DNA of 35,717 bases, taken from positions 1 to 35,717 of the forward strand of contig CANPWK010000001.1 in assembly GCA_947584105.1 (NCBI GenBank), written 5' to 3'. Below, piece after piece: positions 10,088 to 35,717 of this stretch. Below the pieces are notes generated by a model. It did not search any database and had not been told where the DNA came from. It saw only the letters and a list, made by a program, of their open reading frames with translations. Made by a program: the position numbers and the translations under genes. How positions within the stretch are numbered: the stretch's first letter is position 1; each line of letters opens with the position of its first letter. The DNA comes from an uncultured Bacilli bacterium. GTDB taxonomy: Bacteria; Bacillota_I; Bacilli_A; RF39; UBA660.

Positions 10088-10933
10088 TCACTTCTTTTCT
10101 TTAATATGATATAAATTATATACTTCACTTTTTTTCATTCCACGTTCCTTTGCAACTATCTTAATTGCATCCATAACACTAATGCCGTCTTTTAAATAAA
10201 AATCAATATGTTCTTTTATATTCAAATTATTATATTTTTGAATATTCTTATTTCCCTCAATTACTATTACAAGCTCTCCTTTATAAGAATTATTTTCTTT
10301 AATTAATTCATCTATTGTTCCTCTATATATTTCCTCAAATTTTTTAGTTATTTCCCGGGAAATAGATATTTGCCTATTTCCCAAAATATTTCCCAAATCT
10401 ATTAATACCTTTTTTATTCTATGTGGTGTTTCATAAATTATTAAAGTTGCCTCTATATTTTTTAACATTTCTAATTCTTTTTTTCTTGCACTATCCTGTG
10501 ATTTTAAAAATCCATAATAATAAAATGGCATTGGACATATCCCAGATGATGTAAGTGCTGGAACCAAAGCGGTTGCTCCAGGAAGACTTATAACATTATA
10601 TCCATTTTCTATTGCAAATTTTGCAAGTACATATCCAGGATCACTTATTATAGGTGTACCTCTATCACTTACAAGTCCTACATTAAAACCTTTTTGAAAA
10701 TATTCTAATAATTTTTGTTTGTTTCTTGATTCATTATATTCATGTGAAGATATTAATTTCTTTTTTATATCATAATATTTAAGTAATTCTCCTGTTACTC
10801 TTGTATCTTCACAAAATATAACATCTACCTTTTTCAATGTATTTATTGCTCTAATAGTTATATCTTCCATGTTACCAATAGGTGTAGGTATCAAATATAA
10901 TGAAGGAGAGTTATCATAACTTTTTTGTGACAT
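10088..10933 (-). CDS. rsmI: 16S rRNA (cytidine1402-2'-O)-methyltransferase RsmI (YabC)
   Basis: Tetrapyrrole-methylase fold motifs LYLIPTPIGN, CEDTR and SDRGTPIISDPG. 281 aa. Confidence 0.93.
   Translation of the reverse strand: MSQKSYDNSPSLYLIPTPIGNMEDITIRAINTLKKVDVIFCEDTRVTGELLKYYDIKKKLISSHEYNESRNKQKLLEYFQKGFNVGLVSDRGTPIISDPGYVLAKFAIENGYNVISLPGATALVPALTSSGICPMPFYYYGFLKSQDSARKKELEMLKNIEATLIIYETPHRIKKVLIDLGNILGNRQISISREITKKFEEIYRGTIDELIKENNSYKGELVIVIEGNKNIQKYNNLNIKEHIDFYLKDGISVMDAIKIVAKERGMKKSEVYNLYHIKEKK
10349..10364. promoter_or_regulatory. Perfect Noc-binding-site (NBS) palindrome TATTTCCCGGGAAATA inside rsmI
   Basis: It contains the full 14-bp B. subtilis NBS consensus ATTTCCCGGGAAAT as I recall it. 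It is flanked by TATTTCCC half-sites at 10249, 10375 and 10387. Confidence 0.7.
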
Positions 10934-17375: not shown

Positions 17376-19892
17376 TTATAATGTTTCACGTGAAACATTC
17401 TCTTCCTCATTATCTATTTCAGGTTCAATTAATGTAATAGTGCTGACTTTTTGATTATCTTTTAAATTAATTAATTTAACTCCCTGAGCAACTCTACCTG
17501 TTAAAGAAACTTGATTTAATGATAATCTAATAATAATTCCATTATCAGTAATAATCATCAAATCTTCATTACCAATAACACTCTTAAACGAAACTATATT
17601 TCCATTTTTATTTGTTATATTTAATGCTTTAACTCCTTTGCTTCCTCTATGAGTTATTCTATATTCTTCAACATTTGTTTTCTTACCATAACCATTTTCA
17701 GTTACTACTAATATTTTTTTATCTTTATTTGAAATTTCGCAACCTACTACTTTACCTTCGCCAACTTCTATTCCTTTAACACCTGCAGCAGTACGTCCCA
17801 TAACTCTAATTTCTGATTCATTAAACCTTATCATTCTTCCATTACTTGAAGCAATTATAATTTCATTTTTTCCATTAGTTTTTTGAACATCTACTAATTC
17901 ATCATTTTCTTTTAAAGTAATTGCTAATTTACCATTTGTTCTAATATTATTAAATTCACGAACGTTTGTTCTTTTAACTAATCCGTTTGCTGTAGCAAAG
18001 ACTATATAACCATCAGCATCTTCATTTTTTAAATTCAACATAGCTTTTACTTTTTCATCTTTTTCTATAGGAATTAGATTAACTATAGGTAAACCTTTTG
18101 ACTGTCGACTGAATGTAGGAATTTCATAACCCTTTAACCTATATACTTTTCCTTTATTAGTAAATATCATTAAATAATCGTGTGTTGTCATTGAAATAAT
18201 CTTTTCAACAAAATCTTCTTCGTTTGTAGACATTCCTTTAATTCCAACTCCACCTCTATTTTGTGTTTTATAAGTTTCACTTGTAATTCTTTTTATATAA
18301 CCATTATTAGTTAAAGTTATTACTATATCCTCTACTGGAATAAGAGATTCATCCTCTATATAATCTATAGCAGTCATATCTATAGTAGTTTTGCGTTCAT
18401 CTGAATATTTATGTTTTATTTCATTTAATTCTTCTTTTATAATATTTAATATTTTTTGTTCACTAGCTAAAATAGATTTTAATTCATCTATATATTTTAA
18501 TAAAGTATTTAACTCTTCTTCAATTTTATTTCTTTCTAATCCCGTTAATCTTCTTAATTTTAATTCTAGAATACTATTTGATTGAATTTCACTCAAATTG
18601 AAATTTTTCATAAGCGATTCTCTAGCATCTTGATCAGAATCAGATTCTTTTATAATTTTTATAACTCTATCGATATTGTCTAAGGCTATTTTATAACCTT
18701 GAAGAATATGTACTCTATTTTCTGATTTATTTAATTCAAATCTTGTTCTTCTAATAATTACTTCTTTTTGATAATCTATATATTTAGATATGATTGATTT
18801 TAAAGGTAATGTTTTTGGAACTTGACCATCTAACATTAAAAATGTAATTCCATAATTTATTTGAAAAGAAGTATGTTTATATAAATTATTTAAAATAACT
18901 TGAGCATTTGCATCTTTCTTTAAAGTAATAGTTATTTTTACACCATCTTTTAAATCAGTATGATAATCTGATATACCATCAATTACTTTATTATGAACAA
19001 GTTCTGCTACTTTATTTTTTAAATCCATTGTATTGACACCATATGGAACTTCAGTAATTATTATTTGACTATGACCATTATTTTCTTCAATAGAAGCCCT
19101 ACTTCTAATAGTAATTGTCCCTTTTCCTGTTTCATATGCTTGTTTAATTCCTGAATTACCTAAAATAACTCCTCCAGTTGGAAAATCTGGTCCTTTTATA
19201 TATTGCATTAAACCTAAAGTATCTATTTCTGGATTATCTATATAAGCAATACATCCATCAATTACCTCTCCTAAATTATGTGGTGGTATATTTGTAGCCA
19301 TTCCAACGGCAATTCCCATTGATCCATTAACTAAAACATTGGGAAATCTACTTGGTAAAACTATTGGTTCTTTACTAGTAGCATCAAAATTATCTTCCAT
19401 ATCAACAGTATCTTTATTAATATCCCTTAATAATTCTAAAGAAATTTTCGATAATCTAGCTTCTGTATAACGATAAGCAGCTGCTCCATCGCCTTCTATA
19501 TTACCAAAATTACCATGACCATCAATAAGCATATATCTTTGATTAAAATCTTGAGCTAATCGAACCATAGCATCATATATAGAAGCATCTCCATGTGGAT
19601 GGTAATGTCCCATTACATAACCTACAGTTGTTGCTGATTTTTTATGTGGCTTATCTGGAGTATTTCCCTCTTCAAACATAGACCATAAAATTCTTCTATG
19701 TACTGGTTTTAATCCATCTCTTAAATCTGGAATAGCACGTGAAGTAATAACACTCATTGAATAATCAAGAAATGATTTTTGAACTTCCTCTACTATGTTA
19801 TTTTCATATAGACTATCTCTTTCATGAAATTTTTCGCCATATTTATTTTCATCTAAATTATTTTTATCTTTTAATTCATTATTATCTTCCAT
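17376..19892 (-). CDS. gyrA: DNA gyrase subunit A
   Basis: AIPDLRDGLKPVHRRILW, the active-site Tyr region AAAYRYTEARL, and C-terminal beta-pinwheel repeats. 838 aa. Confidence 0.98.
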   Translation of the reverse strand: MEDNNELKDKNNLDENKYGEKFHERDSLYENNIVEEVQKSFLDYSMSVITSRAIPDLRDGLKPVHRRILWSMFEEGNTPDKPHKKSATTVGYVMGHYHPHGDASIYDAMVRLAQDFNQRYMLIDGHGNFGNIEGDGAAAYRYTEARLSKISLELLRDINKDTVDMEDNFDATSKEPIVLPSRFPNVLVNGSMGIAVGMATNIPPHNLGEVIDGCIAYIDNPEIDTLGLMQYIKGPDFPTGGVILGNSGIKQAYETGKGTITIRSRASIEENNGHSQIIITEVPYGVNTMDLKNKVAELVHNKVIDGISDYHTDLKDGVKITITLKKDANAQVILNNLYKHTSFQINYGITFLMLDGQVPKTLPLKSIISKYIDYQKEVIIRRTRFELNKSENRVHILQGYKIALDNIDRVIKIIKESDSDQDARESLMKNFNLSEIQSNSILELKLRRLTGLERNKIEEELNTLLKYIDELKSILASEQKILNIIKEELNEIKHKYSDERKTTIDMTAIDYIEDESLIPVEDIVITLTNNGYIKRITSETYKTQNRGGVGIKGMSTNEEDFVEKIISMTTHDYLMIFTNKGKVYRLKGYEIPTFSRQSKGLPIVNLIPIEKDEKVKAMLNLKNEDADGYIVFATANGLVKRTNVREFNNIRTNGKLAITLKENDELVDVQKTNGKNEIIIASSNGRMIRFNESEIRVMGRTAAGVKGIEVGEGKVVGCEISNKDKKILVVTENGYGKKTNVEEYRITHRGSKGVKALNITNKNGNIVSFKSVIGNEDLMIITDNGIIIRLSLNQVSLTGRVAQGVKLINLKDNQKVSTITLIEPEIDNEEENVSRETL
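17382..17397. promoter_or_regulatory. parS: parS site 7 (perfect), inside the last codons of gyrA
   Basis: Exact TGTTTCACGTGAAACA. It encodes the ..NVSRETL* tail of gyrA. Confidence 0.85.
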
Positions 19893-19905
19893 TAATATTC
19901 ACCTC

Positions 19906-21834
19906 CTATATATCTAGATTTTCAACAAATTTTGCATTTTCTTCAATAAATTTTCTTCTAGGTTCTACTTCTTCACCCATTAATGTTGAAAAAATTTGAT
20001 CTGCCATTACACAATCATCTACAGTAATTCTTCTTAATATTCTTTTTTCAATATCCATTGTAGTTATATTTAATTCATCTGCATCCATTTCTCCTAATCC
20101 TTTCATACGAGTAATTTCCGCTCTCTGTCTAACATTATCTGGCAAAGTGTTTAAATATTCTTCTTTTTCTTCTTCGGTTAATACATATTTTCTTGTCTTT
20201 CCATGCATTATTTTAAATAAAGGTGGTTGAGCAGCATAAACATGTCCTGCTTCAACTATTGGTCTAAAAAATCTATAAAATAATGTCAATAATAAAACTC
20301 TAATATGTGATCCATCAACATCAGCATCTGTCATAATTATTATTTTGTCATACCTTAATTTGCCAAGGTTAAATTCTTCACCAATACCTGTACCAAATGC
20401 AGTTATAATAGACCTTATTTCTTCATTTCCCAAAGCTCTATCTAATCTGTTTTTTTCTACATTTAGAATTTTACCTCGAAGTGGTAATATTGCTTGAGTC
20501 ATAGAATCTCTACCCTTTTTAGCAGAACCACCTGCAGAATCTCCCTCGACAATAAATATTTCAGATACCTTAGGATCTTTACTTTTGCAATCCGATAATT
20601 TACCCCATCCTAAATTTGTAGTAGCTAAATCACTTTTTCTTGTTATTTCTCTAGCCTTTTTTGCTGCGTTACGAGCTCTACAAGCAAGCATTGACTTTTC
20701 AACAATCTGTTTTGCTTCATTTGGATTTTCAAGCAAAAACTTTTCAAAACCTGAAGAAAATACATTATCTGCTAATTTTCTAACTTCCGAATTTCCTAAT
20801 CTACCTTTTGTTTGACCTTCAAATTGGGGATTTGGATGTTTACATGAAACTATCATTGTTAAGCCTTCTTTGACATCTTCTCCGGTCAAAGATTCATCTT
20901 TTTCTTTTAAAATATTGCTTTTTCTTGCATAATTATTTATTAATCTAGTTAAAGCTCTTTTTACACCATCCTCATGTGTACCACCATCATGAGTATTTAT
21001 ATTATTAACAAAAGAATATATATTTTCTTTATAACCCGTATTATATTGTAATGCTACTTCAAAAAATACTCCATCCTCTTCACCTTCTAAATGAATAATA
21101 TCTTTATGAATTGGTGTTTTACCTTGATTAATAAACTTTACATATTCAGAAATACCACCTTCATAAATAAATGTTTCTCCAGTAGTATCTTCTTCATCTC
21201 TATCATCTCTCAATGTTAATCTTAATCCTTTATTTAAAAAAGCTAATTCGCGAATTCTTAACATCAAAATATTATAGTCATATATATCTGTATCAAAAAT
21301 ATTAGGATCTGGTTTAAAAGTTACTACTGTACCAGTACGATTTTCTTCGCAATCACCTATTATTTCTAAATGATTAACTGGATGTCCACCATTTTCAAAT
21401 CTCATAAAATGAATTTTTCCATTTTTATAAACTTTAACTTCTAACCAAGATGATAGTGCATTAACAACACTAGCTCCAACACCATGTAATCCACCGGATA
21501 CTTTATATCCGCCACCACCAAATTTTCCTCCTGCATGAAGAACTGTATATACTGTTTCTACTGTTGAAATTTTTGTTTTTGGATGGATATCTACTGGAAT
21601 TCCTCTCCCATCATCTTTTACAGTTATAGAATTATCTTTATTTATTATAATTTCAATATTATTACAATAACCAGCTAATGCTTCATCTATTGAATTATCA
21701 ACAATTTCCCATACTAAATGATGCAAACCCTTTACATCTGTTGTACCAATATACATACCAGGTCTTTTTCTAACTGCTTCTAATCCCTCCAAAACCTGAA
21801 TATCAGAAGCATCATAATGTGTATTTTCTTTCAT
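19906..21834 (-). CDS. gyrB: DNA gyrase subunit B
   Basis: [17 protein letters not shown], the Toprim motif [20 protein letters not shown] and [12 protein letters not shown]. 642 aa. Confidence 0.98.
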
Positions 21835-22937
21835 TTTATATCACCTCTTTGAATTTTTAATTTTCCATTATTAATATTGAAAATTTTTGCTTTTTTTAAT
21901 ATACTATCATCAATTTCTTGTAATGAAACATTAGTAATAATTACCTGTATACCATTATTTAAATATTTTAACAAATTAATATTTTTTTTATTATCTATTT
22001 CACTAAATATATCATCTAATAATAAGATTGGGAATTCATTCTTATACATCTTAAAAATTTCTATTTCCGATAATTTAAGTGTCAACACAGCTAATTTTTG
22101 TTGTCCTTGCGAACCAAAACATTTTAAATCACTATCATCAAGAAAAAAATCAAAATCATCTTTATGTACTCCATAATATGTAGATCCATTTTTAAATTCA
22201 TAAGTGTATTTTGCCTGAAAAAATTTCAAATAATATTCTTTATCAAAATTATGTTCTTCATAATCTACATTTGGATTATAAACAATTTTAAAATTATTTA
22301 AACCTGTAATATCAAAAAAAATTTTATTACAATATAAGTTTAGCTTTTTAATAAATTTTTTTCTTAATTTATAAATTAAAATATTTTTATCAATTAAATA
22401 ATTTGTCAAAATATCAAAATAATCTTTATTAAATACATTATTTTTTATATAATCATTTCTTAATTTTAATATTTTTTCATATTCATTATAAAGGATATAA
22501 TAATTTCTATATAATTGTGATATCTCTGAATTTAAAAAATTTCTTCTATTTATAGGAGGACCTTTTATAATTGCTAAATCTTCCGGTGTAAATAAAATAA
22601 CATTCAAGTTAGATATATAATCACTTACTTTAGTAATATTATTTGAATCAATTATCATATTTTTTTTATTATTAATATATGTAAATTTAATATTTGTATC
22701 TAATTTATCTTTTTTTAATACCCCCTCAATATTAAAATAATTAAAACCTTTTTTTATTAAATCTTGAATCGAAATACTTCTAAAAGTATCAGTAAATGCA
22801 AGAGTATAAATACTTTCAAGTAAATTAGTTTTGCCTTGTGCATTATTTCCATAAATAATATTTATTCCTTTATTAAAGGAAACAGTTAATTTCGAATAAT
22901 TACGAAAATTACATAATTTTACTTTTTTTAAATACAT
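21831..22937 (-). CDS. recF: DNA replication/repair protein RecF
   Basis: Walker [15 protein letters not shown], the signature FGSQGQQK, and Walker [16 protein letters not shown] overlap with gyrB. Confidence 0.95.
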
Positions 22938-23032
22938 AATATAACCTTCTTTTTTATTTTTTTAGGTTAATTTTAAATTTTTTAAATTATTAATATCCCT
23001 ATACACATTAAATATTATAACACAAAATTAGC

Positions 23033-23069
23033 AATAAAAAAAGAAATTTAGCCTTTATAAATTTCTTTT
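23033..23069 (-). terminator. Intrinsic terminator after comK
   Basis: 12-bp stem AAAAGAAAUUUA / UAAAUUUCUUUU with a 7-nt loop, followed by UUUAUU on the minus strand. It overlaps the comK stop codon. Confidence 0.7.
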
Positions 23070-23520
23070 ATCCTTCTTTGACAATATGATCATATAATTT
23101 TGATTTTAACAAAGAAGCACGACAATATTGATTTTTTAATGAATATACTGAAATAGATGTAGATAACTTTTTACCATTTTTAAATAATATATAAGTTTGA
23201 TTGTTCTCACATATAATATCCTTAATATGATTTAAAGATATCCACATAGATTGTTGATTTCTCGTTGATGAAGTGGGAAAAAAGATTATTCTTCTAGTTT
23301 CTTCTATTATTATTGGAAATTTTGACTTTATTCCAGTTAAACTCTTTGTCCCTTCACATCTTCCAATATATGAACTGCCATAAAAATTACAATTATATTT
23401 AATAATTTTATTGCTGGAATTTGCAACTTCATATTCACAATCTTCTTCATAAATCATACTTTTACTATTATTTATAGGAATAATTGCTTGTGTTGAATCG
23501 TTTATTTCATATTCTTTCAT
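23068..23520 (-). CDS. comK: Competence transcription factor ComK family protein
   Basis: 150 aa. FYGSSYIGRCEGT, IIFFPTSSTRNQQSMWISLNHIK and FKNGKKLSTSISVYSLKNQYCRASLLKSK align with B. subtilis ComK (FFGSSYAGRKAGT / IFLFPTLSSTRPQCGWISHVHVK / FSNGKTMELPISYNSFENQVYRTAWLRTK), from memory. Confidence 0.85.
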   Translation of the reverse strand: MKEYEINDSTQAIIPINNSKSMIYEEDCEYEVANSSNKIIKYNCNFYGSSYIGRCEGTKSLTGIKSKFPIIIEETRRIIFFPTSSTRNQQSMWISLNHIKDIICENNQTYILFKNGKKLSTSISVYSLKNQYCRASLLKSKLYDHIVKEG

Positions 23521-23561
23521 TCTACTTCCCCCTTTCAGTTATCTGTTATAACACTCATATA

Positions 23562-23588
23562 TGTCGAATAATGCCAATTTATGTCGAA
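23562..23588. promoter_or_regulatory. Two Spo0A-box heptamers (TGTCGAA) 20 bp apart upstream of comK
   Basis: TATGTCGAAT occurs at 23560..23569 and 23580..23589, with exact TGTCGAA cores at 23562 and 23582. A likely extended -10 (TGTTATAAC on the minus strand, hexamer 23545..23550) lies just downstream. Confidence 0.6.
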
Positions 23589-23603
23589 TTAATAATTTTT
23601 TTG

Positions 23604-23626
23604 TAAAAAAAAAGCAAAAATGCTTT
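23604..23626 (-). terminator. Weak intrinsic terminator after dnaN
   Basis: Minus-strand AAAGCA-UUUU-UGCUUU followed by a U run, immediately after the dnaN stop codon. Confidence 0.5.
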
Positions 23627-24748
23627 CTAAAATGTTCTAATTGGCAATATTAGTTGAATTAAATGATCATCATTTACATTTTTTACTATAATTGGTTTTA
23701 TTTCTCCATTAAAACATAATTCTATTTCCTGACTATCAAATACTTTAATAGCTTCCATCATAAATTTAGAACTAAAAGAAATATTTAAATTTTTATTTTC
23801 ATTATTTATAATTTTTATATTTTCCTCTACATTACCTATTTCAGGAATATTGGAAGTTATTTTGGCATTATTGCTATCTATAAATAAATTAATTATATTT
23901 TTTTCTTCTTCATTTGTTAATAAAGAGGCCCTATCTATTGCATTATAAAAGTCTAATAGCTTTACTTTAACAGTCAAAGTAAAATCACTTGGTATTAATT
24001 TATCAGTTACTGGATAATTTCCATTTATCAATCTAGACATAATTATAATATTATTGCTTTTGAAAATAATTTTATTTGCAAATATATGCAATTCAAGTTT
24101 TTCATTATCTTCACTTAACATTTTTGTTGTTTCAATTAAATTTTTACTTGGAACAATAATATTAACATCATTATCTGAAGATTTATCTAATTCAATAATT
24201 TTTTTAGATAGACGATATGAATCTGTAGCTGTACATTCTAATAAATTATTACTTATTTTTATATTAATTCCAGTTAATATAGGTCGTGATTCTTGATTAG
24301 ATGTTGAAAATATAATTTGATTAATCATTGTTTTAAATGATGTTTTAGAAAGTAAAATTGGATTTGATACAAATTCTAAATCTAAATTAGGAAACTCCTC
24401 TACTTTATTACAATTAATCTTGAATGATGATGTTGTAGTTGTTATTAAAACTTGTGAATCTATAATTTCTTCTATTGTAATTATTTCATTATTCAATTTT
24501 TTTACTATTTCATATATATAACGTCCAGATATAACAAATTCACCAAGTTCATCAATATTTTCAATTTTCTTACTAGGTATAAATGTTTTTATTGCAAATT
24601 CATTATTAGTACTTAATAAATATAAACCTTCTTCTTTTAAATCAAATTTTATACAATTTAAAATTGGAATTAAATTTTTATTAGATATTCCTCTAATTGC
24701 ATAATTTAAATTTTCCATTAATATATTTTGTTTAATTTTTAATTTCAT
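23627..24748 (-). CDS. dnaN: DNA polymerase III beta sliding clamp
   Basis: 373 aa, directly downstream of dnaA. The length, three-domain size and termini (MKLKI...QLILPIRTF) are typical of DnaN. Confidence 0.93.
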   Translation of the reverse strand: MKLKIKQNILMENLNYAIRGISNKNLIPILNCIKFDLKEEGLYLLSTNNEFAIKTFIPSKKIENIDELGEFVISGRYIYEIVKKLNNEIITIEEIIDSQVLITTTTSSFKINCNKVEEFPNLDLEFVSNPILLSKTSFKTMINQIIFSTSNQESRPILTGINIKISNNLLECTATDSYRLSKKIIELDKSSDNDVNIIVPSKNLIETTKMLSEDNEKLELHIFANKIIFKSNNIIIMSRLINGNYPVTDKLIPSDFTLTVKVKLLDFYNAIDRASLLTNEEEKNIINLFIDSNNAKITSNIPEIGNVEENIKIINNENKNLNISFSSKFMMEAIKVFDSQEIELCFNGEIKPIIVKNVNDDHLIQLILPIRTF

Positions 24749-24872
24749 AAAAACCCTCCTCTTTATATATATTAATATTATTATTATTAATGTTAATAAT
24801 GTGTAAAAGTATATTTTTCCCTTTTATTATAAGCAATTTTATAATGTCAATAAATTGTTTATAAATATTATT
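24749..24872. other. oriC: dnaA-dnaN spacer: candidate oriC unwinding module (incC-like)
   Basis: Two abutting DnaA-box-like 9-mers, TGTTAATAA (24791..24799) and TGTGTAAAA (24800..24808), plus TGTTTATAA (24856..24864). On the minus strand they are followed by (TAA)4-TAT-TAA trinucleotide repeats (24771..24790) and a pure A/T tract. Confidence 0.5.
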
Positions 24873-26228
24873 TTAGCACATTTTTATTTGATTTACCATC
24901 TTTTGGATTTCATTATTTAAATCTTCATTTTTGTTAACTTCTTTTTTTATTTTGTCAACGCCATGCATAACAGTTGTATGATTTCTTCCTCCAAATTCAT
25001 TACCTATTTTTACTAAATTTTCATTTAAATAAATTCTACAAATATACATTGCTATTTGTCTAGGAAGTGTAATTTTACTAATTCTTCTTTTAGATTTTAA
25101 ATCATCAACACTAACATTATAATTACTACTAACTATGTGCATAACTTGTTCGATATTATTTTGTGCAACTATTGTTTTAACAAAATAATCTTTTAGAGCC
25201 TCTGCTGCCAAATTAATATTAATATCAGATCCATTCATAATTGTTGCGAAAGCAAAAACTCTAGTTAATGCACCTTCCAATTTTCTGATATCCCCTACAC
25301 AATTACTTGCTATATATTCTTTTACATCTTCAGGAAAATTAGCACTTAATTCATGATTTTCTATTTTTTTATTAATTATATTCATTCTAAGTTCAAAATC
25401 TGGAGGTTCGATACTAACAGTTAATCCCCAATTGAATCTTGTTTTTAAACGTTCTTCTAATCTTTTTATATCATCAGGCGATCTATCAGAAGAAATAATA
25501 ATCTGTTTTTCATTATTATACAAATCATTAAATGTATTAAAAAATTCTTGTTGTGCAGAAATAGCTCCTACTAAATTATGGATATCATCAATTATTAAAA
25601 CATCAATATCTCTATATTTATTTTTAAACTGTTTGGTAGCTTCAAAATTATTTGAATCACTTGTTTTTCTACAAATTTCTACAAAATCAGAAACAAAATT
25701 GTCGCAAGTTATATATAGAACTCTCTTATTACTGTTTTTTAAAATATAATTACCAATTGCTTGCATTAAATGAGTTTTTCCTAATCCACTTGGACCATAA
25801 ATAAATAAAGGATTATACATTTTACCTGGATGTTCAGCAACCGCTAAAGCACTAGTAGCTGCAAATTTATTACTTTTTCCTATTATATAATTTTCAAAAG
25901 AATATCTATTATCTAAATTAGTGGTAAAATTTTCATTTGTAGGAACTCCGATATCATTTAATGTAATAACATTATTATTAATTTCTTCTTCTAAAAGAAA
26001 TTCAAATTTAAAGTTAGTTCCAGTAATTTCTAAGAAGGTTTCTTCAATTAATTCATTATAATTTTCAGATAAATTTTTTTTATGAATATGATAAGGAACC
26101 AATACTTTAGCAATCCCATTATCAATATTAATTAATTTAGTTTCACTAAACCATGTTTCATAAGATATGTTACTAATCTTTGTTTTTATTTTTTCTAAAA
26201 AATTTATCCACATATTATCTAAGTTCAT
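24873..26228 (-). CDS. dnaA: Chromosomal replication initiator DnaA
   Basis: Walker A GPSGLGKTHLMQAIGN, IIDDIH, and the domain IV signature GGRNHTTVMHGVDKI. 451 aa. Confidence 0.98.
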   Translation of the reverse strand: MNLDNMWINFLEKIKTKISNISYETWFSETKLINIDNGIAKVLVPYHIHKKNLSENYNELIEETFLEITGTNFKFEFLLEEEINNNVITLNDIGVPTNENFTTNLDNRYSFENYIIGKSNKFAATSALAVAEHPGKMYNPLFIYGPSGLGKTHLMQAIGNYILKNSNKRVLYITCDNFVSDFVEICRKTSDSNNFEATKQFKNKYRDIDVLIIDDIHNLVGAISAQQEFFNTFNDLYNNEKQIIISSDRSPDDIKRLEERLKTRFNWGLTVSIEPPDFELRMNIINKKIENHELSANFPEDVKEYIASNCVGDIRKLEGALTRVFAFATIMNGSDININLAAEALKDYFVKTIVAQNNIEQVMHIVSSNYNVSVDDLKSKRRISKITLPRQIAMYICRIYLNENLVKIGNEFGGRNHTTVMHGVDKIKKEVNKNEDLNNEIQKMVNQIKMC

Positions 26229-30972: not shown

Positions 30973-32844
30973 ATGTATGAAGTTATTATAGTCGGTGGAG
31001 GGCATGCTGGATGTGAAGCAAGTTTGGCATGTGCTAGAACTAATCATAAAACATTACTTGTAACAGGAAATATAAAAAATATTGCAGATATGCCTTGTAA
31101 TCCATCTATTGGCGGAAGTGCTAAAGGGATAGTTGTAAGAGAAATAGATGCTCTAGGTGGTGAAATGGGGCGAAATGCAGATAAAAGTTTACTTCAAATA
31201 AAGATGTTAAATAGTGCAAAAGGACCTGCAGTTCGTGCTCTTCGTGCTCAAGCAGATAAAGTAACTTATCCTAAAAATATGTTAAATACATTAAAAAATA
31301 CATCTAATCTAGAAATAAAAGAAGCTATAGTAGAAAATTTAATAGTTGAAAATAATACAGTTAAAGGAATAATTCTTGAAGATGGCAGTAAAATTGAAAG
31401 TAAAATAGTTATCCTTACAACAGGGACATACCTAAAATCAGATATATTAATTGGAGATACGAGAACTAGGAAAGGTCCACATGGAGAAAAACCTAGTAAT
31501 CATCTAAGTGATAAATTAAAAGAATATGGCTTTAAAATAATAAGACTTAAAACAGGTACGCCTCAAAGGATAGAAAAAAGTTCAATAGATTTTTCTAAAA
31601 CAAAAGAAGAACAAGGTGATGATAGATATTGGACCTTTAGTTTTGATAATGAAATATATTATAATAAAAATTCTCAAATACCTTGTCATTTAATCTATAC
31701 AACAGAGGAAACTCATAAAATAATTAGAGAAAATCTTAATAAATCGAGCATGTATGGAGGGCTTAATGATATTAAAGGAGTGGGACCACGATATTGTCCA
31801 TCTATAGAAGATAAAATAGTTCGTTTTGCTGATAAAGAAAGACATCAATTATTTTTAGAGCCAGAAAGTATCTATTATGATGATATATATATTCAAGGTT
31901 TTTCAACAAGTATGCCTTATGATATTCAAGAAAAAATGGTACATAGTTTACCTGGATTAGAGCATGCCAAAATAAACAAATATGCTTATGCCATAGAATA
32001 TGATGCCATAGATGCTAGACAATTAAAGCAATCGCTTGAGACTAAAGTAATAAAAAATTTATATACAGCAGGTCAAATCAATGGAACAAGTGGTTACGAA
32101 GAAGCTGCAGGTCAAGGATTAATTGCAGGAATAAACGCATCACTTAAATTGGATGGAAAAGAACCATTAATACTTAAGAGAAATGAGGCATATATTGGAG
32201 TTTTAATAGATGACTTAGTTACAAAAGGAATTATTGATCCATATCGTTTATTGACATCGCGTGCTGAATATAGACTTCTTTTAAGACATGATAATGCGGA
32301 TATGCGTCTTAGAGAGTATGGATATAATGTTGGATTAGTATCTAAAAAAAAGTATGATAAATTTTTAGTCAAGAAAAAAGAAATAAATAATTTAACAGAG
32401 TATTTAAAAAATACTAAATTGACTCCTAGAAAGGAAATAAATGATCAATTAAAAAAATTAGGTTTATCTGAAATTAAAGAAAGTATATCTCTGTATAATT
32501 TAGTAAAAAGACCAGAAGTAAAAATAGAAAAATTACAAATATTCATAGATATACAATATAGTTTAGAAGTAATGGAACAAGTTGAAATAAATATAAAATA
32601 TGAAGGATACATAAAGAAATCTTTAGCAGAAGCTGAAAGGATGATTAATTTAGATAATAAAAAAATACCTGAAGATATAAATTATGATAAAATACATAAT
32701 TTAGCAAGTGAAGCAAAACAGAAGTTAAAACAAATTAGACCAACATCAATAGGACAAGCTTTAAGAATAAGTGGTGTTAACCCAGCTGATATATCATTAA
32801 TTATGATATATATAAAAAAGGAGTATTTCTATGAATCAAGATAA
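30973..32844 (+). CDS. mnmG: tRNA uridine 5-carboxymethylaminomethyl modification enzyme MnmG (GidA)
   Basis: FAD motif YEVIIVGGGHAGCEA, GPRYCPSIEDK and GQINGTSGYEEAA. The ORF track starts at GTG 30955, but AGAGGTGA followed by ATG at 30973 is more likely. Confidence 0.97.
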   Translation: MYEVIIVGGGHAGCEASLACARTNHKTLLVTGNIKNIADMPCNPSIGGSAKGIVVREIDALGGEMGRNADKSLLQIKMLNSAKGPAVRALRAQADKVTYPKNMLNTLKNTSNLEIKEAIVENLIVENNTVKGIILEDGSKIESKIVILTTGTYLKSDILIGDTRTRKGPHGEKPSNHLSDKLKEYGFKIIRLKTGTPQRIEKSSIDFSKTKEEQGDDRYWTFSFDNEIYYNKNSQIPCHLIYTTEETHKIIRENLNKSSMYGGLNDIKGVGPRYCPSIEDKIVRFADKERHQLFLEPESIYYDDIYIQGFSTSMPYDIQEKMVHSLPGLEHAKINKYAYAIEYDAIDARQLKQSLETKVIKNLYTAGQINGTSGYEEAAGQGLIAGINASLKLDGKEPLILKRNEAYIGVLIDDLVTKGIIDPYRLLTSRAEYRLLLRHDNADMRLREYGYNVGLVSKKKYDKFLVKKKEINNLTEYLKNTKLTPRKEINDQLKKLGLSEIKESISLYNLVKRPEVKIEKLQIFIDIQYSLEVMEQVEINIKYEGYIKKSLAEAERMINLDNKKIPEDINYDKIHNLASEAKQKLKQIRPTSIGQALRISGVNPADISLIMIYIKKEYFYESR

Positions 32845-33535
32845 ATTTATAGAAGAGATTAAAAAAATTGGGATAGAAATAACAGAAGATAAATTATTAC
32901 AATTGGAAAAATATTATGAATTATTAATAAAATACAATGAATTTATTAATTTAACGAGTATAACTAATAAAAAGGAAGTATATTTAAAACATTTTTATGA
33001 TTCTATAACAATTAGTAAAATAATTGATTTAAATAAAGAAAAAAGTTTATGTGATTTAGGTAGTGGAGCAGGATTTCCTGGTATTGTTATAAAAATATTT
33101 TTTCCTCATTTAGAAATTACATTAATTGATTCATTAAATAAAAGAGTAAAATTTTTAAATACTGTTATTGAAGAATTAAATTTAAAAGGAATAAAAGCAA
33201 TTCATATAAGAATAGAAGAATATGCCAAATGTAATAAAGAAAAATATGATATAGTTACTGCAAGGGCTGTTGCATCTTTAAATATTTTACTTGAACTGGG
33301 GATTAATTTAGTTAAAGTTGGGAAATATTTTATAGCAATGAAAGGAAATATTAATAATGAATTGCAATATAAAAATATAATAAAAAAATTAAATTGTTCT
33401 ATTGAAAATATTATAGAATTTCAATTACCAATTGAAAATAGTAAAAGAAGTTTAATAAAAATAAAAAAAGAAAAATCTACTCCAAAAATATTTCCCAGAA
33501 AATATAGTGAGGTAAAAAAGAATCCTTTAATATAA
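32831..33535 (+). CDS. rsmG: 16S rRNA (guanine527-N7)-methyltransferase RsmG (GidB)
   Basis: HFYDSI and the SAM motif DLGSGAGFPGIV. 234 aa. Conserved position after mnmG. Confidence 0.95.
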   Translation: MNQDKFIEEIKKIGIEITEDKLLQLEKYYELLIKYNEFINLTSITNKKEVYLKHFYDSITISKIIDLNKEKSLCDLGSGAGFPGIVIKIFFPHLEITLIDSLNKRVKFLNTVIEELNLKGIKAIHIRIEEYAKCNKEKYDIVTARAVASLNILLELGINLVKVGKYFIAMKGNINNELQYKNIIKKLNCSIENIIEFQLPIENSKRSLIKIKKEKSTPKIFPRKYSEVKKNPLI

Positions 33536-33556
33536 AAGTTTAAAGGATTTTTATTT
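33521..33556 (+). terminator. Intrinsic terminator after rsmG
   Basis: 10-bp stem AATCCTTTAA / TTAAAGGATT with a 9-nt loop, followed by TTTTATTT. It overlaps the rsmG stop codon. Confidence 0.7.
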
Positions 33557-33598
33557 CCCAAAATATTTTAATATGCTATTGCATTATTTCCCAAAATA
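33552..33598. promoter_or_regulatory. Two copies of TTATTTCCCAAAATAT (NBS-like half-site motif) in the noc promoter region
   Basis: Exact 16-mers at 33551..33566 and 33584..33599, 33 bp apart. The second fills the 17-nt spacer between TTGCAT (33579..33584) and TAATAT (33602..33607). A related ATATTTCCCAGAAAATAT lies at 33488..33505. Confidence 0.6.
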
Positions 33599-33634
33599 TA
33601 GTAATATAATAATAAGAATAGAAAGGAGTTAAAA

Positions 33635-35266
33635 ATGCAAGATAACAAGGGAATTAATAAAGTAATTGAATTAGAAAATAATGATATCCTACCTAATAGA
33701 TTTCAACCTAGAAAATATTTTGATGAAGAAGAAATATTGCAGTTATCAGAATCGATTAAAGAACATGGTGTACTAAATCCAATAATAGTTAGAAGACTCG
33801 GAGATAAATACGAATTAGTTGCTGGCGAAAGAAGATATAAAGCCAATATTTTAGCAGGAAATGATAAAATTCCAGCTATTGTTATGGATGTAAACGATAA
33901 AGAGAGTTCAGAAATAGCAGTAGTAGAAAATATTCAAAGAAAAGATTTAAATGCAATAGAAGAAGCTATTTCATATAAAAGAATATTAGACATAGGCTAT
34001 ATGACTCAAGAACAGTTAGCACGCAAAATGGGAAAAAGTCAATCATCAATTGCTAATAAAATAAGATTATTAAAATTGTCAGATGAAGTTCAAGATGCTT
34101 TAATGAAAAAACAAATATCAGAAAGACATGCAAGGTCATTACTAAGATTAGAGTCAATAAGCAAGCAAAATGAATTATTAAAAAGAATTATTGATGAAAG
34201 ATTAACTGTAAGAAAAACGGATGAGGAGATAGAAAAAATGAATAATAATATTAATGCCAATATTTTAAATAATGAGTATTCTCAAGATAATAATACAAAT
34301 AACTATATAAATAATAATATAAATGCAAATAATAATATAAATAATAATAATATGGAGAATAATCTAAATAACAATAATATAGATAATATATATTCTCAAA
34401 ATATTAATGGATTTAATCAAAATATGCAAATGAATAACCAAATAAATAGAAATATAACTAATTTTAATTCAGATCAAAATCAACAATCTACTATAACTAA
34501 TTTTAATGATGTAATTTTAACTAAAGATGAAAAAATACCAGAAGTACCAAGTACTAATCCAATAGAAGAAAATATTACACCAATAATGCCTGATAAATCA
34601 GTACCAGAAGTTGATTTATCAACTTTCCAAGAGGAAAATAATACAGATTTAAATACAATTAATAATGACATTTTTAAAAATAATTCTCAAATACCTGTTA
34701 GTGATTTTAATTTAGATAATCAAGTAGTAATGCAAGATAATATAAATTCTAATTTTATTTCTTTAGATGATAGTACCAAAAATCCAGTAAATGATAACGT
34801 AAATATAAACAATGTAAATAATATAAAATTAGATTTAGATTCTAACATAGCAAGTCATAATTTAAATGATAATATTTTTATAAAACCTCAATCTGACATA
34901 GTAGAAAATGATAAAAATAATAATAATAATATTAAAATTAATGAAAATGAATATAATAATAATCAATCCAATATGTTTAAATCGTCGCCAATAATTGATA
35001 CTACAAATAATAATCAAGAAAATCAAAATAATAATTATCAATCAGAAGTGAAACCAGAACCAATTATAGTAAATGATTATAATCAACAATATGATCCTAT
35101 AATGCCAGAAAAAGAAAATATAAATCCAACAATTGATTTTAAATCTATCATAAATTTAATTAGAAAGTGTTCTGCAGCTATAGAAAATAGTGGATATAAA
35201 ATTGAAACAGAAGAATATAATTTAGATAATTTATATCAAGTTATATTTAAAATTGAAAAACAATAA
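33635..35266 (+). CDS. noc: ParB-family nucleoid occlusion protein (Noc-type) with a ~300-aa Asn-rich low-complexity insertion
   Basis: ParB N-domain (LPNRFQPRKYF, VAGERRYKA) and an HTH with Noc-type residues (GKSQSSIANKIRLLKL ... ISERHARSLL, against Spo0J GKSRPHIANHLRLLTL ... SMGHGRTLL). The C-terminal ~45 aa (IINLIRKCSAAIENSGYKIETEEYNLDNLYQVIFKIEKQ) resemble the Noc C-terminus ([35 protein letters not shown]). Conserved position after rsmG. Confidence 0.85.
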   Translation: MQDNKGINKVIELENNDILPNRFQPRKYFDEEEILQLSESIKEHGVLNPIIVRRLGDKYELVAGERRYKANILAGNDKIPAIVMDVNDKESSEIAVVENIQRKDLNAIEEAISYKRILDIGYMTQEQLARKMGKSQSSIANKIRLLKLSDEVQDALMKKQISERHARSLLRLESISKQNELLKRIIDERLTVRKTDEEIEKMNNNINANILNNEYSQDNNTNNYINNNINANNNINNNNMENNLNNNNIDNIYSQNINGFNQNMQMNNQINRNITNFNSDQNQQSTITNFNDVILTKDEKIPEVPSTNPIEENITPIMPDKSVPEVDLSTFQEENNTDLNTINNDIFKNNSQIPVSDFNLDNQVVMQDNINSNFISLDDSTKNPVNDNVNINNVNNIKLDLDSNIASHNLNDNIFIKPQSDIVENDKNNNNNIKINENEYNNNQSNMFKSSPIIDTTNNNQENQNNNYQSEVKPEPIIVNDYNQQYDPIMPEKENINPTIDFKSIINLIRKCSAAIENSGYKIETEEYNLDNLYQVIFKIEKQ

Positions 35267-35427: not shown

Positions 35428-35717
35428 ATGAATAATAATCAAAATAGTTGTGGAAATTTAGTAAAAAAAGCTTGTAAAAAAATAGAACATGATTCTAAAT
35501 ATGCATCCAATTTGTCAATGACAATAGTAGGTCCAACAGGGCCTACCGGTCCAACGGGCCCAACAGGTCCAACGGGTCCAACAGGCCCAACAGGTCCAAT
35601 GGGACCAGCTACCGTTTCAGTAGGTGAAACTACAACAGCAGCTCCAGGGCAAGTAGCTAATGTAATTAATTCTGGGACTAATACTGAAGCAGTATTAGAA
35701 TTTACTATCCCTCAAGG
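35428..35717 (+). CDS. Collagen-like triple-helix-repeat protein (BclA-like exosporium/surface protein), 5' fragment truncated by the window end
   Basis: AAAGGAGG SD then ATG. Translation is [34 protein letters not shown]-(GPT)7[42 protein letters not shown]. The GPT repeat block (35531..35608) is locally GC-rich with mixed synonymous codons. Confidence 0.8.

Follow-up and report, generated by a model that had tools for sequence, protein, structure and literature searches.

Noc is a ParB-family protein known for tying DNA to the membrane and blocking cell division over the chromosome. Its binding sites (NBS) reportedly number about 70 in Bacillus subtilis. The NBS is a 16-bp palindrome, TATTTCCCGGGAAATA, with a 14-bp core, ATTTCCCGGGAAAT, and the bases that separate it from parS are adenine 1 and cytosine 6 of the arm (PMC7383237). 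The known NBS of B. subtilis and Staphylococcus aureus are described as nucleation sites for a membrane-tethered complex and not as operators (PMC7383237; PMC8429893; PMC5540599); in S. aureus there are 41 Noc-bound loci, and NBS are spread over the origin-proximal chromosome (PMC8429893; PMC5540599). Two other members of the ParB family are relevant here. In vivo, ParB of Pseudomonas aeruginosa occupies not only a few full sites near oriC but also half-parS heptamers (PMC5961200, PMC10419367), and KorB of plasmid RK2, a CTP-dependent protein, represses transcription through OB sites located at or near promoters (PMC11790492).

The locus that we compare with these systems is a noc-type gene and its upstream region in an uncultured Bacilli bacterium, contained in a 35,717-nucleotide stretch of DNA that was analysed as a whole (the window), where the candidate noc promoter carries two copies of a single NBS arm. 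The likeness to Noc of B. subtilis and S. aureus includes the same half-site (TATTTCCC, with A1 and C6), the same QKKR residues, the ParB_N and HTH domains, the GERR motif, and the presence of perfect 14-bp NBS, found here and in 70 of the 81 family genomes. The differences are that the sites in those species are 16-bp palindromes, whereas here single arms stand in direct repeat in the gene’s own promoter; that perfect NBS are few (between 1 and 5 in most of those 70 genomes); and that the protein lacks the N-terminal membrane helix. As in P. aeruginosa, a ParB-family protein, here Noc, would be using single arms of its palindrome, but the half-parS sites of P. aeruginosa are scattered over the genome, have moderate effects on expression, and have not been reported as a conserved pair of operators in the protein’s own promoter. 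As with KorB, a ParB-family CTP-dependent clamp would act as a transcriptional repressor; however, OB sites are full palindromes, KorB depends on KorA or TrbA as a partner for locking at promoters, and it is plasmid-borne and controls many operons, whereas neither a partner nor a wider regulon for Noc was seen among 13 inspected matches to the operator pattern, TTGNNNTATTTCCC, away from noc. The B. subtilis spo0J gene holds a full parS within its coding region that serves as a centromere, and plasmid parAB operons are usually autoregulated via ParA, with ParB as the co-repressor. The noc locus resembles both in that a ParB-family gene has a site for its own protein in cis, and differs from spo0J in that the sites are half-sites in a promoter instead of a full, centromeric site in the coding region.

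The window is part of a metagenome-derived assembly (1.04 Mb in 136 contigs, 25% G+C, 90.7% complete), of which it makes up 3.4%, and oriC lies within it. Its leftward strand holds a series of long ORFs, recR, dnaX, and rsmI among them; the leftward ORFs at 17376-26228 are read as gyrA, gyrB, recF, dnaN, and dnaA from their order and length, and the rightward ORFs that precede rsmG and noc are read as mnmE and mnmG. The genes confirmed by Pfam are only rsmG, noc, rsmI, recR, dnaX, and a few neighbours. The gene located 3' of noc (35428-35715) encodes a collagen-like protein with a GPT repeat and is not part of a soj-spo0J pair, which sits on a separate contig (C13 of this assembly, G000). There, the spo0J gene beside soj is split into ORFs of 87 and 173 aa (L002, 1242-2127) by a frameshift in a stretch of six A that lies just 5' of the GERR motif, and the spo0J proteins of relatives are intact (294-300 aa). 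The frameshift is probably an assembly error, although it could be real. This second ParB has the parS-type residues R and G at the two base-reading specificity positions. The close relatives are metagenome-assembled genomes deposited as uncultured Bacilli or Erysipelotrichaceae; judging from their isolate names, they appear to come from samples of rumen, human gut, and rabbit.

Table 1. Positions of the sites, candidate promoter elements, and genes discussed in the text (numbering of the window).
Feature	Position	Strand	Evidence or remark
Perfect 14-bp NBS and two TATTTCCCAAA half-sites, inside rsmI	10350-10394		NBS at 10350-10363
rsmG (16S rRNA m7G methyltransferase G), upstream of noc	32831-33535	+	Pfam GidB, E 5e-50; stop codon 33533-33535
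O3, NBS-like site ATATTTCCCAGAAAATAT in the last codons of rsmG (K-I-F-P-R-K-Y)	33488-33505	+	Core 12/14 to ATTTCCCGGGAAAT
rsmG terminator hairpin, then a T-run reaching into the distal half-site	33518-33552	+	Folding
O2, putative distal operator, TTATTTCCCAAAATAT	33551-33566	+	Core TATTTCCC at 33552-33559, a perfect NBS half-site
-35 hexamer TTGCAT of the candidate noc promoter	33579-33584	+	TTG invariant in 16 genera
O1, putative proximal operator, TTATTTCCCAAAATAT, filling the -35/-10 spacer	33584-33599	+	Core TATTTCCC at 33585-33592
-10 hexamer TAATAT of the candidate noc promoter	33602-33607	+	TA..AT kept at 17-bp spacing
Shine-Dalgarno sequence AAAGGAG of noc	33622-33628	+	Sequence reading; 6 nt 5' of the ATG
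noc-type ParB-family gene, 543 aa	33635-35266	+	ATG at 33635; Pfam ParB_N and HTH_ParB, E 4e-30 and 5e-33

A sequence-only reading of the window had noticed an exact 16-mer that occurs twice, 33 bp apart from start to start, with the second copy filling the spacer of a candidate TTGCAT-17-TAATAT promoter, and both the two copies (O2 and O1) and the hexamers are located where it had placed them (Table 1). The direct repeat that holds the 16-mer extends to 24 bp, of which 22 are identical, and includes a second TAATAT. The candidate promoter, with its 17-bp spacer, is weak, matching the sigma-70 consensus at 7 of 12 positions (our own count, using the hexamers of the scan). Consensus scans for promoters and terminators list neither this promoter nor the rsmG terminator, and we therefore relied on conservation for the former and on folding for the latter. 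The terminator was missed by the scan because its stem is A+T-rich; it folds at -14.9 kcal/mol (z -4.5), and none of 200 shuffled sequences was equally stable. An Rfam search of positions 33300-33800 gave no match at E values up to 1, and a known RNA element was rejected as an explanation on that ground and because the sites also lie upstream of the -10 hexamer.

O1 and O2 match the left arm of the NBS at 8/8 positions and the right arm at 4/8, or 12/16 overall (our own alignment), and an NBS pattern search allowing up to 3 mismatches lists neither of them. They are therefore not full NBS; we class them as half-sites, and not as near-complete palindromes, because each consists of one perfect arm, TATTTCCC, and a degenerate second arm. 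O1, O2, and O3 all carry ATTTCCC and so keep A1 and C6, both of the bases that discriminate NBS from parS. The same units are found within rsmI, where two TATTTCCCAAA half-sites (ATTTCCC at 10376 and 10388) and a copy of TATTTCCCAAAATA (at 10375) lie beside the only perfect NBS in the 1.04-Mb assembly. The recurrence in rsmI that the sequence-only reading described is thus real, and its conclusion that the unit is a reused module rather than a local duplication is half right: the unit does recur in rsmI, but the promoter pair itself looks like a local 24-bp duplication.

The sites are concentrated in the window. All four genomic copies of TATTTCCCAAAATA lie within it, as do 7 of 11 copies of TATTTCCCAA and 18 of the 95 ATTTCCC heptamers of the genome. 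Matches to the motif with at most 2 mismatches number 11 in the window; shuffled sequences gave a mean of 3.2, and 0 of 100 reached 11. Exact direct repeats of at least 16 bp within 60 bp are also scarce, at only 18 genome-wide. The pattern of sites in the window exceeds chance. Half-sites are also present in coding DNA around oriC and, being in coding regions, cannot be operators there.

The third NBS relative, O3, is where the sequence-only reading had placed it, with 12 of 14 matches to the core. It overlaps the conserved K-[YF]-P-R motif of RsmG, which is written TATCCAAGA, without a site, in most relatives, and equivalents occur at only 3 of 80 noc loci (L004, L010, and L034). The proline codon in O3 is CCC, which is the rarest proline codon in use (2.7% of Pro codons). 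O3 is weak evidence; it largely reflects the coding of the RsmG motif and is suggestive through its use of CCC. The starts of O3, O2, and O1 are 63 and 33 bp apart, near six and three helical turns, such that all three sites (33488-33599) would lie on roughly the same side of the helix.

The noc product has TIGR04285 as its best family (276 bits, under the curated NCBIfam cut-off of 315 bits), with parB_part second (172 bits). Residues Q136, K142, K147, and R164 align with Q158, K164, K169, and R186 of B. subtilis Noc (7OL9), and these four residues (QKKR) suffice to turn ParB from parS to NBS (PMC7383237). ParB_N, HTH_ParB, and QKKR, the combination expected of a Noc protein, are all present. 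It has a roughly 300-residue Asn-rich linker and a GERR motif. The N-terminal amphipathic helix that targets Noc to the membrane is absent; the protein starts with MQDNKGINKVIELENNDILPNRFQPR, about 19 residues ahead of the conserved box. Many Noc proteins of other Bacilli families start with MNIFS.., MGLFDFLG.., or VFNIFS...

We compared the regions upstream of noc at 80 loci from 74 genera, 7 of them from the genus of this genome and 73 from different genera within its family. Of the 80 loci, 29 (in 23 of the 74 genera) have ATTTCCC or GGGAAAT at least once in the 200 bp before noc, and 26 of those 29 have two or more such sites; because related genomes are not independent, such locus counts overstate the number of independent events. 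The half-site density in the 200 bp upstream of noc is 4.2/kb (68 in 16 kb), about 46 times that of this genome as a whole (0.09/kb); in the adjoining 250 bp farther upstream it is 0.8/kb. Within the promoter, the half-sites occupy preferred positions. Counting from the first T of the -35 hexamer to the start of ATTTCCC, a half-site is located at +7, inside the spacer, at 21 loci representing 16 genera, and a second position, from -13 to -16, is occupied at 18 loci, five of which have no +7 site. The upstream copy in the genome described here is at -26, 11 bp (one helical turn) farther out than in relatives, and the start-to-start spacing is accordingly 33 bp instead of 21-23 bp.

Across the 16 genera, TATTTCCC in the spacer is invariant, at 1.4-3.0 bits per column, and the AAA that follows is nearly so. 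Of the hexamers, only the TTG of the -35 and the TA..AT of the -10 are fixed; the other hexamer positions vary, and the flanks carry no information. The pattern TTGnnn-17-TAnnAT is kept at the 21 operator-bearing loci and matched at 39 operator-less loci, whose spacers carry 0-0.7 bits per column. The half-site thus appears to overlap the candidate core promoter at a conserved register, as expected for the operator of an autoregulated gene. Perfect NBS palindromes are present in the rsmG-noc intergenic region of three genera (L048, L063, and L077), and a fourth locus (L040) has a site one base off a perfect NBS in the same region. At L005-L007, an inserted ORF separates rsmG from noc, and the half-sites have remained beside noc. 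An everted palindrome, GGGAAATATTTCCC, in which the NBS arms are swapped, lies 13-25 bp before the noc -35 at four loci (L010, L043, L047, and L052).

The idea that half-sites accompany noc in general was rejected, since none of 30 noc loci from other Bacilli families carries a site in the 200 bp preceding the gene. Within the family, the noc promoter has no site at 51 of the 80 loci, so the family as a whole does not require the circuit. In some operator-less relatives (e.g., L055, L066, L068, and L080), the noc -35 (TTGTAA or TTGAAA) lies on the last rsmG codons, where CCATTGTAA encodes Pro-Leu-stop, and the noc promoter therefore overlaps the end of rsmG with no intervening terminator.

Searching the 81 family genomes with TTGNNNTATTTCCC gave 96 matches, compared to about 58 for a reversed control, and 17 of the 96 are at noc promoters, 50-80 bp upstream of noc. 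All 13 matches inspected away from noc are in coding sequence and none marks a second promoter target, and we rejected a wider regulon on this basis; one of the off-noc matches is a full NBS in dnaX. As far as inspected, the putative operators are restricted to noc promoters. Most of the recurrent TTGTAA class of matches comes from the antisense strand of a tyrS motif: TTGTAATATTTCCCCATTGATC, found there in six genera (L091, L093-L096, and L099), is a coding motif resembling the operator pattern and produces false positives in scans.

Of the family's perfect NBS that were listed, most are no more than about 25 kb from noc. One genome, G055, is exceptional in having twelve perfect 14-bp NBS with a period of ~79 bp (contig C1, 89140-90102), roughly 16 kb from its noc gene, and eight more on two small contigs, an array far denser than in the other family genomes sampled. 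By our own tallies, in which related genomes are not independent, the mean number of perfect NBS per genome is 0.9 with a spacer operator (n=17) and 2.7 without a promoter site (n=51), the latter dropping to 2.4 when G055 is left out.

The explanation that we favour, with a probability of roughly 0.55, is that the half-sites in the noc promoter are operators for negative autoregulation by Noc. We read the sites as those of a repressor because the -35/-10 spacer and the DNA abutting the -35 are repressor positions, and we take the binder to be Noc because the arm is an exact match, because full NBS occur in the same region in relatives, and because the sole recurrent promoter found is that of noc. 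In the proposed mechanism, TTGCAT-17-TAATAT would be the active noc promoter, and Noc would bind the single arms of O1, within the spacer, and O2, which lies upstream of the -35 and faces about the same side of the helix. Bound Noc would hinder RNA polymerase at this promoter, and the hindrance would hold Noc synthesis at a set level. Because their second arm is missing, O1 and O2 should bind Noc less strongly than do the few perfect NBS close to the origin, and they would become occupied only at excess Noc, after the strong sites have been filled. The proposal of the sequence-only reading, that noc carries its own protein’s sites in its promoter for autoregulation or self-nucleation, gains support from the comparison (the register shared by 16 genera, the second preferred position, the perfect NBS in three genera, and QKKR), with the limit that the sites are half-sites.

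In the main rival reading, the same sites would bind Noc only as an origin-proximal cluster for loading or retention (self-nucleation or organisation of the origin domain), their position in a promoter having no effect on transcription. We regard this as possible but rather unlikely. It would account for the clustering of TATTTCCCAA around oriC and noc in both coding and non-coding DNA, which is seen in the window and also in a relative, G007, where 9 of 12 copies are within about 25 kb of noc. The scarcity of perfect NBS in most of the 70 genomes and the closeness of the listed ones to noc also fit, as do the sites of L063 and L077, which lie 36-94 bp upstream of the -35 and thus outside the promoter, and half-parS sites of P. 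aeruginosa have been proposed to retain ParB on the nucleoid (PMC10419367). A cluster of this kind gives no reason for a fixed register relative to the -35, however, yet the +7 position is used at 21 loci and the -13 to -16 position at 18; moreover, the sites follow the promoter when the upstream gene changes, and the density immediately before noc is far above that of the genome. Given the fixed register, a role that is positional alone is disfavoured, though loading or retention and an operator role can coexist.

That a different DNA-binding protein reads TATTTCCCAAA, with its likeness to the NBS arm being coincidental, seems improbable to us. Response regulators and other repeat-binding factors, more typically than ParB-family dimers, use direct repeats spaced by about two helical turns, and the near-invariant AAA after CCC would also be consistent with another binder. 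The rsmG site loosely resembles a CodY box, matching at 11/15 positions in our own alignment to AATTTTCNGAAAATT, which we take to be the consensus, with the promoter copies at about 10/15. A CodY box was rejected, as no CodY gene was found in the 90.7% complete genome and the invariant CCC does not fit. Against any such binder, the 8-mer is an exact NBS arm that includes both bases distinguishing NBS from parS (PMC7383237), perfect NBS and everted arm pairs occur in the same intergenic region in several genera, and the only recurrent promoter found to bear the motif is that of an NBS-reading protein. We give very little credence to the idea that the sites have no function and are either decayed relics of NBS or the outcome of a recent local duplication within intergenic DNA rich in A+T, with the rsmG site a by-product of F-P-R-K-Y coding. 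The extent and identity of the repeat here, including the second TAATAT, are what a duplication would give, and the overlap of O3 with a motif that most relatives write without a site is in keeping with a coding by-product. Relics, though, would not keep an invariant register in 16 genera while the flanks and hexamers drift; two or more sites are present at 26 of the 29 site-bearing loci, and a rare CCC codon was used for the proline of O3. Conserved register, multiplicity, and invariance together disfavour an absence of function.

Negative autoregulation through half-sites is not a new kind of system, since both autoregulation by ParB-family proteins and half-site binding have precedents. Among the papers that our literature search could reach, none deals with autoregulation of Noc, with half an NBS as a target of Noc, or with how the level of Noc is set; this suggests that putative half-site operators in the promoter of noc itself, seen here at the level of sequence, have not been described. 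A bolder proposal, which we consider doubtful, is that Noc in this anchorless family is no longer a nucleoid-occlusion factor but an origin-proximal, KorB-like CTP-dependent clamp and repressor that has shifted from palindromes to single arms. With its long disordered linker, a dimer could then place its pair of DNA-binding domains on direct-repeat arms of its own promoter that are separated by two or three helical turns.

The conserved pair of half-sites offers a cheap, testable hypothesis for how the amount of Noc is set, namely that a CTP-dependent ParB-family clamp may gauge its own free concentration through weak single-arm sites. The noc promoter is a natural test of whether Noc reads half an NBS. 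The Noc of this family, a large one made up of uncultured Bacilli from gut and rumen, lacks the membrane anchor and may be put to a use unlike that of the textbook protein.
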